Below the pieces are notes generated by a model. It worked only from the letters and a program-made list of their open reading frames with translations, was not told the DNA's origin and did not search any database. A DNA stretch of 63,968 nucleotides, the filler included, from Craspedostauros australis (taxonomy: Eukaryota), in assembly GCA_030167865.1 (NCBI GenBank). It is 5 parts of 5 records of this genome, joined end to end, with 100 filler letters (N's around TTAATTAATTAA, not from the genome) between each part and the next. Parts side by side here need not be neighbours in the genome. Positions count along the whole stretch, not along the records: positions 1 to 21,018 come from JALAGF010000835.1; 4 more parts are not named here. One strand, given 5' to 3'. Shown here piece after piece: positions 1-47,746 of this stretch; positions within the stretch are counted from its first letter, which is position 1, and the number at the start of each line of letters is the position of its first letter. Both the position numbers and the translations under genes were made by a program.

Positions 1-392
1 TCTCGGGGCACCCTCATTGCTGGGTGGCTAATACTGCCAGACGAAAGTGGGAGTGCTGCCGTAGCAGACAAGTGTGAGACTGGGTCGAAATCCGGTGATC
101 GCAACGCGCCCACGAAGGCGTGTTGTGCAAGGTTGTCCTAACTCAGCGATGTAGAACTAGCTGCGACTGTTAATCTATTAGAGCACTATCGAAAAATCAC
201 AAGGGGTGAGCAAAAGCAAAGTACCATGCCGGGATTCGAACCCGGAACCTCAGTTAGAATTACTGGTGCTCTACCGTTGAGCTACAGGCGATGCGATTGC
301 TGATCCGAACACAAGTGAAATTTATAGATAGTGGGGGCTACGGGAGTAACGTACTTAGCACTATTCAGTTTTGTGCTGATAATGGTATTACA
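1..392 (-). mobile_element. 5' end of a putative LTR retrotransposon: 225-bp LTR (168-392) plus start of the internal region (1-167), which runs off the window
   Basis: The minus strand starts TGTAATA (392) and ends GATTAACA (168), giving TG...CA termini with a short inverted repeat. It contains TATAAA (326-321). The LTR/internal junction GCTCTAATAGATTAACAGTCGCA (184-162) recurs at 63312-63334 just upstream of a long ORF. The flanks GCGAC and TGATT differ, so it is not a solo LTR with a TSD. A possible ATG lies at 17 (MRVPR...). Confidence 0.6.
221..291 (-). tRNA. tRNA-like sequence (probable pseudo-tRNA / Pol III cassette) inside the putative LTR
   Basis: TCGCCTG-TA-GCTC AACGGTA GAGC-A-CCAGT AATTCTA ACTGA-GGTT-CCGGG TTCGAAT CCCGG-CATGGTA-C. 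D and T arms are perfect and carry A and B boxes. The anticodon stem has 4 bp, and its loop (nominal TTC) lacks U33 and purine 37. The acceptor stem is mispaired. A TTTT run follows about 6 nt downstream. Confidence 0.7.
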
Positions 393-2406
393 TGATTGCA
401 GCGGCAGCAATTGTTGCGTGTGGTTTAGCAGTCCGCGGTATGCTCCAAGCAACATGCTTCCCCTTAGCTCATCCCACACATGACGAATCGTCGAAAGATG
501 CCCACTGAAGGTCTTGGCCGTCCCACGAATACTTCCCTGTGCGTGTTGAGCCAGCGGACGGTGTGGACCTGCGCATGGTGTGAGCCAGCGCACGGTACGC
601 TCGCATGCATTATACATCCCATCACCTCGAAGCTGAGATGGAGGCACCATGCTAGTTCACACAGCCCGTTTCCGTCAGCGAAAAGACGATGCGCCAAGCT
701 TTGTGCCGAATCAGAGAGTGTAATTCTTGCAATCGGTACAATGAGAGGGAGGAGCACATCGAGAGTTGATTCCGTGCCTTGGGCCACGTCACTATCTTTC
801 CTACTGCCTCTGCTGGCAATGCGATGCTGAGTGCTGATGCAACGCCGGGTGCGAGACAGCATGACGGCGGAGAGGCATGGCGATATCGGCAGTGGCCATC
901 ATCACTGCGAGGATGGAATTGCATAGGACAGCACTGATCAGGGCAGCTGGCCTTGGAGTTAATCTCCCTCAGACAACCCAGGCAAAAACGCATGACTTCT
1001 GCGATGCACTTCGGTTGGCATGCATTTTTCAGATCTGCATTCCTTTCGTGGGCCACCACCAAGAGAACAATCTGCGGCATCGGGATGGCCGTGGTTCGTC
1101 TTCGATTCGAGATACCCGGTCAATATTGAAGGCGTCGCGGCTTTGAAAATTGAGGGGGTGGTGGGTTCGAAAAATCCTGACCGAACACGTACGCATCGTT
1201 CGGACGAAGACCTTGACGAGTGTGCATGGGTCGCGGCGGCTTGATCTTTGCCGTTCGTTGGCGTGGCATCAGGTATCCACAATTCGGCGTTGCCGGCACA
1301 ACTTGTACTACATCCGGGCATTGCCCATGTTGCCAACATCAGCGTCGCGAATCTAACTTCATGGTTCGTGGGCTGAGCACACAATGGTACAGAGCCGAGT
1401 ATGGCGTGAGCAAAAAATGGCATGTTGCAAAATGGATGTTTTCGGTGGTGGAAAGTGGCGTCGCTGGCAGTATTCGCATGTATGCAATAAACCAACAAGA
1501 CCCACCATCGTGGGCGATCTCCCAGTCTCATCCTCGTGGAACTCAATAATGACACCAAGATTGCCTCGTCCACTTCAGATGAAACGTAAATGACGCAAAT
1601 ATTTCGACGCTCTGCCGTCGAAGGGTGAAGCGAAAGACTCGAATAATCTTCGCAGCCGTCATGATTCGGCTACAGACTTGACATCCAGCATGGTCTCAAG
1701 AGCCATCGTTCCTCAAGTGCAAGATCGCAATGATCCTGGGCGATCTGTACAGTTATGTGGCGGTGTGAGCGTGATGCTTGGGGGTCGAGTCTGGCGCAAT
1801 GCTGTCTTCGCCGCTGACCTGAGGGGATTGGGATCTGGGGGAATTGATTCCAACGATGCCAACTGTCAACTTCTTCGGGACAATCACCACCATTGCATTC
1901 GTTCGCGCTCGTCTGAAGATGCGCTCCGAGGGCCAATGAACGCATGTCATGTTATCACCCTTTTCATCCCTCCAACTCTGAATCGTCGTCTCATGACGGA
2001 TTCCGGCTGATGCGAAGTAGAGTCCTCGTATGGAAGATGTTGAATCGCTTGCACCCCCAGCAACGGCACTTCTGTGATGCTCCGAAGAGGAGTTAGCTGG
2101 GCGATGGGGTTGCGCGGTCTTGATCGTGGAATGAATTGGAATGAGATGAGGTGGAATGAGGTGAAATGATTCGATGCCATTCGAAGCATCAAGACCGCCA
2201 TTGGCTGTGAATGGGGTACTCGGTGTGAGCGCAATGGTGATATCATGGTCTCCAAGTATGCAGTCCATAAGCGCTTCGAGTGAGAGCGTTGATATAAGCA
2301 GAGCATAAACATGCACGATTCATCATGTTCGTCTGGCAAAAGCGCACATTGGTACTGATCACGTTGAGGTCTGAAGCAACCGCTTCGTGCACGATGCAAG
2401 TAGAGT

Positions 2407-2432
2407 AGAGAGAGAGAGAGAGAGAGAGAGAG
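2407..2432. repeat. (AG)n microsatellite
   Basis: Uninterrupted AG dinucleotide run. A similar run lies at about 55353-55374. Confidence 0.9.
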
Positions 2433-3456
2433 ATAGTATCCAAGTCTTACCTTCATACTGCGAACGGATAGCGTGGAGTTTACCACATTCGTCCACGTTG
2501 AATTTGCTCACCATGCTTTCTATTCTGTGTGCATGCGGATAGAGAAGGTTGGTGCCGTCATCGCCAGCCTCCTTCTTTGAATGCCCTCATCTGTTGCTCT
2601 TGCTCTTGCTCTGTCTGTCTTTTGTTTCGCCATTTTCCATGGTCGTTTCTGCGAGTGCTTCATGCAGAGTTCAGCACTCACGTCTCTCTCTCTCTGCCAA
2701 CAGACGTGAGTCACAATACGACCAGCCCAAAACGTCATTCGTTGACGACCACAAGAATGCGTCAGTTGGTGCGAAGCAACACGAGGAGATGAACATACGA
2801 CTACTTGCACCAAACGTTTGTGTCACTTTTGTGAGGAATCGATCGAGAATTTGAGCCGTTTTCAGCATGTCCGTTCTTTCATCTATACCTTGTACGAGCA
2901 AGTTCGGATGGAACGGCCTGTTGATTTGGAGCGCCTGATTCACACGGTCAACATGAACGGTCCACGTGAGGTCTGAAGAAGTACTTTGAGACAATCTCAT
3001 TCGATACCTCTGAATGCTGCCAACGATGTTTCAACAAAGTTCAGAAATCTGTGTCGATAACTGCAAAAAGGCGAAGACGAACACATGAAAATAGAAATAA
3101 TCACACGACTCCAAACGACTCGAAAGACTGAGTAAGAGTTCCCTCCGCACCAAGACGGCACCAAGACGACACCAGGATAACACTGACGACAACGTTGTGG
3201 ACAATCGACGATGAGCGGGAACATCACCATTCACAAACACACAGACACAAACCGAAGACGACTTCGGATACGACGATCTAATAGTTTGGGCAAGATCAAC
3301 AAGCATACTCGCAGAACTCGAGGAGCACCACAGAGGAGCGCATCTTACATAGCACAAGCAAGTATAGTACGATAGTGAAACGGCGAATCAGCAAAGCAAC
3401 CTAAGGACGTTCAGCGCTCGTTGCAGACGTATGGACACGGTCCCTTGCCCACCACC

Positions 3457-12013: not shown

Positions 12014-15000
12014 ATGTCGAGATCGCAGTACTTCCTCAACAAAACCAAAGGGAGGTTTCGATCCAAGCATCACCATCAGGAAGGGGATGGGCATGCCAAC
12101 GATGACGCGGAACATTCTGGCAACAACAGCAATGAGCAGCATGCACTGGCTGCAGGGGCCAACGCCCGAGCAGATCACGGGCTTCCCAGTATTCAACCAA
12201 CCGCAAGCAAAACTGTAACAGGGAACAGAGGTGGCCAAGTGGCGATCCAACGCGATTCGCAACGATCCAAGGGACGAGGATTGGAGCCAGGCGGGTGGCA
12301 GCAGTCACCTTCTCCGTCTGCAAGGAGCAGCAGCAGCAACACCAAAAAGAAGAGCAAGCAAAAGAGAACTTTATCATTGGACAACGTCAAATCAGCACAG
12401 CCAAAGGACGCATCACGTAGCTTGTATCACGCAGCAGTCGCAGGCAAATCATCAGGTGTGCAGAGCAGCCGAGGTCACAACAAGCGTCGCCAGCAACAGC
12501 AACTACAGCAGCAGCACAGTCGACGACCGCTGCCCGATCCCAGAGCGCACTCAGCTCATTCTTCGCAGCATGGTGGAGCGGAAGTCAGTCTTCCGACATC
12601 GCCATCTTCCTTCTCTCAACGCAGTGGGCCCATCCCGATCGATTTAGAGTCGGGCCATCAAAGTTCGCTGCTCTTCAATGATCGCTCGCGGTTTGCTTTG
12701 CAGAGACGCTCCTCCTTCCACAACGCGGGAGAAGACGAGGATGAGAGGCTGGGATCTTCATTGTTGTTTCAGCCCAAGCAGGAGAAGCCATTGGTGGATG
12801 TCGATGGCATGGCAAGCACGTTATCCACTATGAGCCTGTCGCAGAGACTGCAAATCCCTGCGTACATCCTTTCAGATGTCACGAGCTTGCTTCACGTGCC
12901 TTACGAAGCGAATTCTCTTGGTCTACCGGAAGAGGCACCGCCTGCGGCTACTGGAGAACCTGATTTCCGAACGGAACCAAACGAAGCCACGCCGAAGCAC
13001 ATCGAAGTGAAGGAGAATCAACCGCCCAGGATTCCAAATCGCTCTGCTGCCAAATCCGGTTTGAGGAGCGGAAAGCACATGTCTGATTTGCAACCACTAT
13101 CGGACGACGAATCGCACGGCAGCCCGAGGGGGAACAAGCGTGCTCAGACGAACAGAAGTGACCAACGCCACCGCCACGCCAGGAACGACAACGATGCTGA
13201 TGCGGATGATGATATGGACGATAAATCGCTTGTGTCAGCTCTGGATATGACCGCGGACGCCAGCTTCTCGGTGGGGAGTTCACGTCCAGCACGTGTGCAC
13301 GTCTACCGAGATGGTCACGTGGAGATCAAACCAAAATTAACGATACAGACGCAGCAGCCGGCGCAGACACGACGCCGGCAAAAGCGTGCGTCCAGGCCGA
13401 CCAATGTCATTGTGTCCAATTTGCCATCCCCGTCCAGGATGGGCAACAATTTGGATCAGATCATCACGGATCTGACAGATTCCCTCGCCTCGCCCGGCAA
13501 CCAATCACGTCTCACGCACCTTGGCATTGAGCAGACGCATTCCGAATCCTTGCTACAAGCGAAGCGCAGTCCAAGCAACAATGGCAAGAAGGGTCGTGGC
13601 AGTCCCTCGAAGGGTGGATCCCGGCATGCCAGACCCAAAACGCCATCCAGAAGAACGCAGCGTGGGCCACACGTGCCGAACCGGTTGGATGAAGGAGACA
13701 TCCCATTGCAGACGAAGGCAAATTCAAGCAAGATTCTCGAGAAGAACCTGGACATTCTGCCCGAAAACGAAGAGGCGCACTTCTCTGGCAAACCTGCGCA
13801 CCATCCCAAGCCCAAGAAAATGAGAGGGCCGCAGCCTGTGGTGGAAAGAGTGGCCAAGCTCACGACCGTTCAAGCCACGGACAATCCCCGCAAGCACTTC
13901 CAAACGGTGTCGCCAACCGGCCTCCGATCGAAGCCTACTTTGATTTCTCTGTCCGTGTCATCGTCCGGTTCGTTGCCACTACCTCCGTCACCTCAAAACG
14001 AGCAGCCACAGCACAAGATGCAAAAGCTGGCGCCACCATCGCAAAAACTTCAGCGTAAGCCGGTACCTCAGCAGTCTGCACCAAAGCCGCGGCCAAAGGT
14101 AACGCCAGTGCCAACCACAGCTCCACGTCCGGCTCAGGCTCCGGTCCCAACCCAAGCCTCACTGCCAATACCTTTGTCAATGTCCGTGCCGACTCTTCCA
14201 TCACCACAGCAACACCAGCAAGCTCGTCGATCAACGCTCGAAACACAATCTTCGCATGCTAAAGGCGCGCTGATCGACGCCATGCCGTCAGAGAAGTCGG
14301 ACAAGGAAGACAGCGACACCAGCCGCTCTCAGAGGCAGGCGTACGGACCAACAACGTCATTTGACCTCCTCGGCAACTATCAGAAGCAACGTGACTCTCT
14401 GTCGGTGTCTGCCTCCGACGTGTCCACACGCATTTCAGGTGTCGGATCTGGGACTGCCCGCGAACCCATCGAAGTGCAGAACGTGCCAGCGAGTGAAGCT
14501 GCCGAGCACCAACCGCATAGATCCATTGAGCCGCCGGCGGGCACTGGTGGCGGAGATCTCGACGACGATTTCGAGGCGATCATACGCCCAGACCCTCCAG
14601 CCTTCATTGTGGGCAGCTACAGTCTGGATGCCACCGCCACCACCGTCACGGCGGCTAGGTATCGAATCGAAGACCCTATTTTCCTTGATGATTCCACCAG
14701 GGATCCTTCGAATATCGATTCCAGCCGACGCAGCCACGTGGCTGCCATCGGGTTCCGTGGTATGGATGCATCATCGCATGCTCAGCACCTACTAAACAAT
14801 AACAGTGCCCATCACGAGTCGGGGCCACACCAACGACTTCTCTCTGCCCCGATGCACCAGCAAAGCGTCGGACCGCGCGTCCTTGGACGCAACATGTTCC
14901 ACGATGACGAGCTCGATCGAGACCGTGATGGACACCTGTACGACCATGGTCCATTGACAATGCAGATGAACCAGACGATGCAAAGGAAGCCGCAGCTCCA

Positions 15001-21018: not shown

Positions 21019-21118
21019 NNNNNNNNNNNNNNNNNNNNNNNNNNNNNNNNNNNNNNNNNNNNTTAATTAATTAANNNNNNNNNNNNNNNNNNNNNNNNNN
21101 NNNNNNNNNNNNNNNNNN
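21019..21118. other. Artificial contig linker N44-TTAATTAATTAA-N44
   Basis: Six-frame stop linker, identical at four sites in the window. Confidence 0.98.
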
Positions 21119-28486: not shown

Positions 28487-29875
28487 TTATGCCGACGAAA
28501 GGCAGCTCGGAATGACGAAGTCTACCACGCCATCCTTTGATGTCACCTTGTGCGAAATGACAGGCTTGACATCGACGGCTTCGTCGGCGCCGACCCACCC
28601 GCACGAAGCCAGAAGCTTGTCGCAAGCTTCATCCAAGGTCTTTTGCGAGCGATTGGTGTGGACGGTGGCAATGGCACCGCCCGGCTGGACCGCATCGCCA
28701 ACCTGGATGGCAAAGACCACCCCCGCCGCCGGGTCCACATCCTCGCCGGCCACGCGCCGACCCGCTCCCAGATCAACGCACGTGCGACCAACCGCGAGGC
28801 CGTCGAGCGACGCCAGCTTCTGCGCCTTCTCGGCGACGATCGTTTTGGTGAACTTGGAGCTGTTGGGGTAGCTGGAGGGGTCGTCGCACACCGTGACATC
28901 GCCTCCGTGCGCCTGCACCATTTCACGGAACGTGGGGTACGCCTTCCCGCTGTCCAGCTGCTCCTTGACCATCGCGACGGTGTCGTCCCATCCGAGATCG
29001 TCGTACTTGCCGGACTGGTGCACCATCTGAGAGGCCTGCACCACGACCAGGGTTCTGAGGTCGTCGCAGCCCTCGCCCGTCTTGAGCATCTTGATGCACT
29101 CCTCGATTTCGAACCAGTTCCCGACGGCCTTGCCGATGATGGAATCCATCCGTGTCAGCAAGCACGTGGTGGGCGACAGTCCGTTTGCTTCGCCCGTCGC
29201 GATCATGCTGTGTGCCAGCTTGGCGGCCTCGTCGACGTTGGCCTGGAAGGAGCCGGTTCCGTACTTGCAGTCCAGGATGAGGCTGCGAGGATGCTCGGCG
29301 ATCTTCTTGCACATGATGGACGAGGTTTGCAGCGGGATGCTGGAGACGGTGCCCGTGACATCGCGCAGGCCGTACAGCTTGCGATCCGCGAGGCACATGG
29401 CCTTGGAGGCGGCGATGATGGAGCAGCCTATTTCCTTCACGATGGTCTGGAACTTGGGTATGGGCAAGTCCGTCTGGTAGCCGGGGATGGATTCGAGCTT
29501 GTCGATGGTGCCGCCCGTGTGGCCCAATCCGCGACCGGCCATCATGGGAACGCGGACGCCCAGCGAGCCAACGAGCGGTGCCAGCACCATGCTGATCTTG
29601 TCGCCCACCCCTCCGGTGGAATGCTTGTCAACGAGGTGCGGGTACTCATCGACAGGCCACTGGGCTTGGACGCCGGATTGCACCATGCTCTTCGTCAGCA
29701 CTGCCGTCTCCGCGGCTGTCATGCCCCTCCAGCACACTGCCATCAACCACGCGGACATTTGGTAGTCTGGGACGTCGCCTTTGGCATATGCGGCGATCCA
29801 TTCCTGAATCTCCTCATCTGAATGCGGGTCCGCATTCGCCCGCTTCTTCAGTATCATGGAGACAGATTCCACCAT
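28487..29875 (-). CDS. TYMP: Thymidine phosphorylase / pyrimidine-nucleoside phosphorylase (deoA/pdp family)
   Basis: Motifs PDYQMSAWLMA, VDKHSTGGVGDK, GRGLGHTGGTIDKLESIPGY, ADRKLYGLRDVTGTV, SIMCKK, LGAGR. Intronless, with ATG at 29875. Confidence 0.95.
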   Translation of the reverse strand: MVESVSMILKKRANADPHSDEEIQEWIAAYAKGDVPDYQMSAWLMAVCWRGMTAAETAVLTKSMVQSGVQAQWPVDEYPHLVDKHSTGGVGDKISMVLAPLVGSLGVRVPMMAGRGLGHTGGTIDKLESIPGYQTDLPIPKFQTIVKEIGCSIIAASKAMCLADRKLYGLRDVTGTVSSIPLQTSSIMCKKIAEHPRSLILDCKYGTGSFQANVDEAAKLAHSMIATGEANGLSPTTCLLTRMDSIIGKAVGNWFEIEECIKMLKTGEGCDDLRTLVVVQASQMVHQSGKYDDLGWDDTVAMVKEQLDSGKAYPTFREMVQAHGGDVTVCDDPSSYPNSSKFTKTIVAEKAQKLASLDGLAVGRTCVDLGAGRRVAGEDVDPAAGVVFAIQVGDAVQPGGAIATVHTNRSQKTLDEACDKLLASCGWVGADEAVDVKPVISHKVTSKDGVVDFVIPSCLSSA

Positions 29876-47646: not shown

Positions 47647-47746
47647 NNNNNNNNNNNNNNNNNNNNNNNNNNNNNNNNNNNNNNNNNNNNTTAATTAATT
47701 AANNNNNNNNNNNNNNNNNNNNNNNNNNNNNNNNNNNNNNNNNNNN
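47647..47746. other. Artificial contig linker
   Basis: N44-TTAATTAATTAA-N44. Confidence 0.98.

Follow-up and report, generated by a model that had tools for sequence, protein, structure and literature searches.

The closest described systems to the element analysed here are the Helenus (TRIMp3) elements reported by Kojima in 2024, which are TRIMs that carry a tRNA-derived sequence in their LTRs and that occur in fungi, animals and one plant (PMC10886601). Their target-site duplications (TSDs) measure 4-6 bp, and 5 bp in fungi and plants; multiple origins are favoured for them, and how TRIMp3 elements find their helpers is stated to be an open question (PMC10886601). Cassandra elements likewise carry a module derived from a Pol III gene in both LTRs of a TRIM, and they are the only case in which Pol III transcripts have been shown (PMC7215508, PMC10886601). 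In diatoms, the autonomous Copia elements named CoDi (Copia of diatoms) were described by Maumus in 2009, and TG/CA ends are missing in 3 of 26 CoDi families (PMC2806351). In the portions consulted, the words "diatom" and "stramenopile" do not occur in the text of PMC10886601, nor do Phaeodactylum, Thalassiosira or Bacillariophyta in its supplement, and "tRNA", "primer binding" and "TRIM" do not occur in PMC2806351. No published diatom TRIM with a tRNA-bearing LTR was found in the open-access literature.

The window, that is, the whole stretch of DNA that was analysed, comprises 63,968 nucleotides of the diatom Craspedostauros australis; its position 1 is a contig end, and its parts are joined by N-padded spacers (21019-21118, 47647-47746 and later ones). 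The plastid contig of the assembly likewise points to a diatom, as it codes for a protein (ycf89) with named homologues in Bacillaria and Haslea. The feature near its start is almost certainly one LTR of a 662-base non-coding TRIM, which consists of a 206-bp LTR, a 250-bp internal region and a second 206-bp LTR. Complete copies elsewhere in the genome are 662-664 bp long, below 1000 bp, and their LTR pairs are 96-100% identical. A search of the own genome with the LTR region returned 40 scored matches of 94-100% identity, nearly all limited to positions 176-381, and the flanks of the copies change exactly at 176 and 381. The preliminary description had drawn the LTR as a 225-bp TG...CA unit at 168-392, and these limits had to be abandoned: the "TG" at 168 belongs to the primer-binding site (PBS), read backwards, and the "CA" at 392 lies in the flank. 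The TSD also differs from the TGATT that had been proposed for this copy. It was predicted to be ACCAT, and the single hit obtained in the genome was an LTR end of 83 nt, identical to that of the window, which forms the terminus of contig C2498 and is followed by ACCAT; therefore, the window copy is the 5' LTR of a TSD-bounded TRIM that is split over two contigs. The twin LTR expected to the left was recovered as this 83-nt end. The gag/pol genes expected with it were not found after the window LTR, where positions 1-175 match the non-coding internal region, and in a complete copy (L002) the longest sense-strand frame that begins with ATG has 26 codons. Eleven matches to the internal region occur in the genome, and the contigs numbered next (C834, C2670 and C6718) do not continue the elements. 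The coordinates of the features are collected in Table 1. Elsewhere in the window, an ORF at 28490-29875 on the minus strand matches the pyrimidine-nucleoside/thymidine phosphorylase families above cut-offs.

Table 1. Features of the TRIM copy at the start of the window (positions are those of the window).
Feature	Position	Strand	Basis or remark
Internal region, first 175 of ~250 bp (contig end cuts the rest)	1..175	-	94-98% identity to the internal regions of complete copies
Extended pairing to nt 1-26 of tRNA-Asn (predicted)	126..161	-	duplex -18.5 kcal/mol; 23/1000 shuffles as good
Primer-binding site	162..175	-	14/14 complementary to host tRNA-Asn(GTT) nt 27-40; abuts the LTR
5' LTR	176..381	-	206 bp; sense ends TATC...AATA; copy boundaries and end census
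Second T run (T5) in the LTR	192..196	-	sequence
T4 run	212..215	-	position of a host-type Pol III terminator
tRNA-like unit, 71 nt	221..291	-	paired positions, as read from the sequence: D stem 4/4, T stem 5/5, anticodon stem 4/5 and acceptor stem 4/7
B box GGTTCGAATCC	232..242	-	sequence
A box TAGCTCAACGG	274..284	-	sequence
CAGCAA motif	297..302	-	type enriched upstream of host tRNA genes
TATAAA	321..326	-	35-30 nt ahead of the tRNA-like unit, a zone that is AT-rich at host tRNA genes
Target-site duplication ACCAT	382..386	-	twin after an identical 83-nt LTR end, G000:C2498 (L300)

The other copies support this architecture. Matching 5-bp TSDs flank all five complete copies for which both outer flanks were read (L002, L006, L020, L035 and L036): TATCT, GGCTG and TGATT at the three loci that hold a whole TRIM, and CATCC and AGTTT at two gapped ones; the LTR pairs within complete copies agree at 205/205, 199/207 and 152/152 positions. 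Furthermore, an exact 5-bp TSD is present at 34 of 47 distinct solo LTRs, compared with none of 1892 cross pairs, and several of the near misses resemble CpG decay. Of the 66 copies with both LTR ends readable, 32 have the sense ends TATC...AATA and 28 have TATC...TTCA, and the LTR starts with TA in all copies but two. The 18-mer core of the tRNA-like unit has 76 matches at one mismatch or fewer, compared with one in the control, and the copies are mostly 86-100% alike. CpG decay is seen in them, the A and B boxes included. Several loci show later events: one TRIM LTR has received, at its TATA box, a ~700-bp element bounded by terminal inverted repeats (L108, G000:C4086:3250-4850), and another locus beside a further repeat, likely an internal deletion, has a TRIM 3' LTR with its PPT directly preceded by only a few bases from the 5' part of the internal region (L016, G000:C6680, near 2148). 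Many TRIM copies lie inside or beside other repeats (flanks of L005, L006, L021, L029, L110-L112, L119 and L131), among which is a ~870-bp LTR with TG...CA ends. Contigs of run X1 span the TRIM; that this run is RNA is a guess, and such contigs show neither start nor strand.

The tRNA-derived, non-decoding cassette that had been noted inside the LTR, and its likeness to Cassandra, were confirmed, and the cassette is present in every LTR copy examined. The sense order of TATAAA, tRNA-like unit and T4 run (326-321, 291-221 and 215-212) also stands, as does the 71-nt cloverleaf with its intact D and T stems and broken acceptor stem; as a tRNA gene, this cloverleaf was not called by ARAGORN, which made no call in the whole window. 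The unit matches Rfam RF00005 at 286-227 on the minus strand with 35.4 bits, against a gathering score of 29. Its anticodon loop is AATTCTA, which begins with AA, and it contains TAGCT, CGG and GGTTC. Judged from these features, the unit probably does not work as a tRNA. As RNA, the LTR (z -1.40) and its tRNA-like part (z -0.16) both fold no better than shuffled sequences. In a comparison with an incomplete set of 59 host sequences of 29 isotypes, organelle tRNAs included, the closest tRNA is the nuclear Arg(TCT), identical at 52 of 72 positions, and the 3' half is closest to Val; with 52/72 as the highest identity, the unit is far diverged from its source, and its boxes, three stems and flanking signals have been kept. 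Non-CpG variation per column among 52 copies, a set from which seven segmental duplicates and the second LTRs of two-LTR elements had been dropped, amounts to 0.011 for the A box and to 0.009 for the B box, compared with 0.047 and 0.067 in the flanking LTR; this contrast is driven by about 14 shared subfamily columns, several of them clustered, and part of the copies were found through the 18-mer inside the unit, which biases the search to the core. The lower variation in the boxes may thus be taken as weak evidence for constraint. The compensatory stem changes that had been anticipated across copies were not seen in the 52-copy comparison; the copies are too young.

Other identities were considered for the element and rejected. 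A Helentron/HINE-like reading, suggested by short terminal palindromes, was abandoned in view of the TSD, PBS and PPT. An assignment to SINE2 was discarded on the grounds that the unit lies 90 nt inside the LTR, that the TSD has a fixed length of 5 bp, and that a PBS and PPT are present. With a 250-bp non-coding internal region, one hybrid locus aside, it is not an autonomous Copia (CoDi) either. Finally, a Cassandra/Ajax identity was rejected, since RF00005 gave the only matches in window positions 1-3000 at E values up to 1.

The diatom TRIM agrees with Helenus/TRIMp3 in every structural respect that could be assessed, this name being defined by structure and not by descent: it is a TRIM shorter than 1 kb, with a tRNA-like unit with A and B boxes in each LTR that is non-functional as a tRNA (PMC10886601). 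The likeness is closest to the fungal families, with which it shares the 5-bp TSD, the many solo LTRs, a PBS for the anticodon loop, and Copia as the likely helper; the internal regions of Helenus-3_PGr and Helenus-2B_PSt open with the same tRNA-Asn-type PBS, several fungal Helenus elements have a T4 after the tRNA-like unit, and TA ends occur among them (PMC10886601). It differs in its diatom host and in the TA start of nearly all its LTRs. The available parts of PMC10886601 hold no TRIM/helper hybrids, extended primer pairing or comparison with the flanks of host tRNA genes, all three of which we report for the diatom TRIM. The preliminary description, which was unsure whether such an element had been described, concerned a described kind, Helenus; no diatom member of it was found in the open-access literature. 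Cassandra, on the other hand, has a 5S (type 1) promoter, a plant host, a PBS for the 3' end of a tRNA, and no known helper (PMC7215508, PMC10886601).

The structure, the 5-bp TSDs, the PBS, the PPT, the copy number and the cis-signals common to the TRIM and to Copia elements with gag-pol are all direct observations. Compared with 51 host tRNA sequences, the PBS matches Asn(GTT) over 14 nt and the next best over 6 nt; it does not match the tRNA-like unit of the LTR itself. Its 11-mer has 82 sites in the genome and 6 in the control, and the 77 distinct sites that were read comprise six tRNA-Asn genes, one unrelated sequence and 70 LTR-PBS junctions of about ten families, most of which are followed by gag-like frames. 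These approximately ten LTR families share the PBS for the anticodon arm of tRNA-Asn (L041-L065, L076, L096, L188, L215 and others), and most of them keep GTGA about 40 nt further on, complementary to the first four bases of the tRNA. The extended pairing with tRNA-Asn nt 1-26 is predicted in six of eight other families (6-23 of 1000 shuffles as good) and does no better than shuffles in the remaining two (218 and 748 of 1000). In Drosophila copia and yeast Ty5, a half-tRNA serves as primer, and its end lies within the anticodon stem (nt 40). The diatom TRIM resembles these elements in its predicted half-tRNA priming (PMC10886601), but they use the initiator Met tRNA and its PBS matches tRNA-Asn; in the TRIM and in six of the eight other families, what remains of the tRNA's 5' half is also predicted to pair.

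At the other end of the internal region, a PPT ending in GGGGAG abuts the TRIM 3' LTR. One Copia element (L089) has an intact ORF of 1833 aa with an RVT_2 match, the PBS of the TRIM, a PPT ending in GGGGAG, and an LTR that opens with the same 9 nt as that of the TRIM. At this locus (G000:C4353:1-7600), Copia units form a tandem array in which 738-bp LTRs starting with TA are shared between units, with a third LTR start at 12353. The LTRs of two further families, Copia A and Copia B, begin with TAT(C/T)AGC after the same PPT core. Since the TA start is common to the TRIM, L089 and Copia A and B, this non-canonical start is a trait of the helper lineage. At another locus (L059:940-1000), the end of a Copia A LTR is truncated, and its last 30 bases recur in inverted orientation directly before it. 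The helper Copia families likely belong to CoDi, judging from the domain order protease-integrase-RT-RNase H read from the ORF, the RVT_2 match, and a named homologue of the polyprotein in the diatom Mayamaea; CoDi, probably the group of these gag-pol-bearing helpers, differs from the TRIM in being autonomous (PMC2806351). Beyond the PBS and PPT, no internal segment was found to be common to the TRIM and 20 Copia-bearing loci, so no single helper is identified by sequence.

Based on these shared signals, the TRIM very probably depends on Copia for its mobilisation. Its RNA would be packaged in Copia particles, the first strand would be primed by the 40-nt 5' half of tRNA-Asn and the second strand would start from the GGGGAG PPT, after which the Copia integrase would insert the TRIM via the shared TAT(C/T)AGC end; most insertions would then collapse to solo LTRs.

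Two loci join TRIM and Copia sequences directly. In the first (L038, C2671), the last 238 bp of the Copia A LTR are followed by the PBS, the full TRIM internal region, the PPT and a TRIM LTR; in the second (L119/L170, C6717), a full TRIM LTR is followed by the PBS and by the Copia B leader and gag-pol up to the contig end. Both hybrids switch within 16-17 shared bases at the PBS, and they are reciprocal. Hybrid junctions make up two of the six readable TRIM junctions and none of the 64 Copia-only junctions (Fisher p 0.006); the p value becomes 0.018 when the rearranged L059 is counted, and ~0.017 (calculated by hand) when four TRIM copies with a gapped or decayed junction are added (2/10). These reciprocal hybrids likely derive from strand transfer in shared particles. 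In the standard scheme, plus-strand strong-stop DNA ends in a copy of the PBS and transfers to the minus strand (PMC6894440); here, the plus-strand strong-stop DNA of one element would land on the minus strand of the other via the identical PBS, and precisely the two observed arrangements would be expected from such an exchange of templates. We tentatively propose, at somewhat less than even confidence, that the hybrids are fossils of such a transfer between Pol III-made TRIM genomes and Copia genomes in one particle.

It is also possible, and this has to be weighed seriously, that genomic copies exchanged sequence at the 16-17 shared bases, by ectopic recombination or by microhomology repair, and so gave rise to the hybrids, or that L119 is mis-assembled. 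Recombination is common, as the solo LTRs show, the assembly is fragmented and gap-rich, and no matching TSD end was found for either hybrid; their far ends were not found in genome searches, in which 30 of 105 empty-site matches were read. However, the Copia-only junctions offer the same microhomology in far more copies, yet none of the 64 is swapped. Furthermore, L038 is diverged on both sides of the joint and carries a CpG change inside the PBS, so that it is not a join through shared k-mers, and L119 begins exactly at the LTR end, inside a repeat with a known empty site.

The tRNA-like unit probably serves as the Pol III promoter of the TRIM, a role for which the signals around it speak indirectly; for the insulator and RNA-processing roles that had also been suggested, the analysis gave no positive evidence. 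A run of T4 or longer lies within 18 nt downstream of 36 of 39 host nuclear tRNA genes (background 2.8%), and exactly T4 is the commonest host terminator, found at 22 of the 39. CAGCAA, GCAACA or CAGCAG is present within 25 nt upstream of 18 of these genes, compared with a mean of 1.1 and a maximum of 4 in shuffles. On a profile of host tRNA-gene flanks, the 45 nt of the LTR upstream of the unit score 2.9, close to the leave-one-out median of 3.5, the background median being -8.6, with 46 of 5000 windows reaching the score of the LTR. TATA-like words upstream of host tRNA genes show no excess over AT content (109 of 500 shuffles reach their count). The CAGCAA/GCAACA motif and T4 terminators are shared among host tRNA flanks, and a GGT/GGC difference in the D loop separates some isoacceptor genes (L047, L052, L067 and L068 against L187; genes for Lys, Arg and Thr(TGT) in L142-L205). 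If the unit acts as a promoter, TFIIIC and TFIIIB would load Pol III at the A and B boxes and the upstream motif, and transcription would start a few bases before window position 291. Most transcripts would stop at T4/T5, giving RNAs of roughly 85-105 nt, and a read-through fraction would end at the T4/T5 of the 3' LTR, giving a ~540-560-nt template with a repeated R of ~85-105 nt. It counts against a simple Pol III model that each LTR has its own host-type terminators ahead of the PBS, since Pol III would have to pass both T4 and T5 to make a full-length template.

The TATA box of the LTR could equally serve Pol II. Accordingly, Pol II might make the genomic RNA from the TATA box of the same TRIM with the same helper, the unit acting as a TFIIIC-bound anti-silencing barrier or as a 3'-end or processing signal, with Pol III making only short abortive RNAs. 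TATAAA lies ~30 nt ahead of the likely start, the T4 inside each LTR is of the commonest host terminator type, and pairing in the D, T and anticodon stems has persisted also beyond the strict boxes even though the unit is only 52/72 like its closest host tRNA; silencing pressure is plausible given the CpG decay of the copies. Nevertheless, we consider this reading unlikely. The region upstream of the unit scores like the flanks of host tRNA genes, the acceptor stem needed by RNase P and Z has only 4/7 pairs, and the sense strand of the internal region is free of T4 or longer runs in two of three complete copies examined, as a Pol III template would be. Moreover, the T4 after the tRNA-like part recurs in several fungal Helenus LTRs (PMC10886601). 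Taking the TRIM, its Pol III-made RNA, its mobilisation in Copia particles and the hybrids by strand transfer together, we regard this account as fairly probable.

Relatives of the TRIM were sought with a pattern of B box plus PBS. This pattern gave eight hits in metagenome contigs, of which one is a clear TRIM (L294), one a possible TRIM (L295) and six look like chance matches or tRNA clusters; there were no matches in viral contigs. L294 (OOGN01002355.1) is an unrelated, smaller TRIM with an 84-bp internal region; it shares the PBS and PPT core but has a different tRNA-like unit, in which the variable arm is long. This second case bears on whether the unit merely travels along as a neutral passenger, having entered the LTR long ago as a SINE or tRNA gene. 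As the copies are young, their conservation says little, and a fold no better than that of shuffles would fit a passenger. We nonetheless hold this to be very unlikely, given that L294 also has a tRNA-like unit together with the same PBS and PPT, and that boxes, stems, upstream motif and terminator are intact after ~28% divergence from any sampled host tRNA. Furthermore, no free SINE with the tRNA-like core was found: the 38 core matches fetched are all in LTR context.

The proposal of the preliminary description that the LTR belongs to an autonomous element with gag/pol to its left can be dismissed almost entirely, and for the window copy it is refuted: one locus (L119/L170) does have a TRIM LTR ahead of gag-pol, but that gag-pol is Copia B, whose six other junctions carry its own tRNA-free LTR, the internal region is non-coding, and wherever a TRIM LTR was seen behind a PPT, that PPT was the one of the TRIM itself (30 of 38 sites fetched).

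In summary, the diatom TRIM is a real, young, multi-copy element whose kind is already known and whose host lineage is new in print as far as the open-access literature shows. Its identical LTR pairs, together with an intact Copia that has the same signals, indicate a young family. At least 76 LTR copies, above the Rfam cut-off, can pass as tRNA genes. The element extends the Helenus type to diatoms, the fourth eukaryotic lineage for this kind in print, which supports the view that parasitic LTR elements have captured Pol III genes more than once. On the question of how a TRIMp3 element reaches its helper, matching helper signals are seen here, and the two TRIM/Copia hybrids provide a testable physical link. 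If the strand-transfer reading is true, the hybrids name the helpers directly, Copia A and Copia B, and the TRIM rides on more than one family via the shared PBS for a tRNA-Asn half; the hybrids would then also show a route that places an LTR bearing a tRNA gene ahead of a gag-pol gene.
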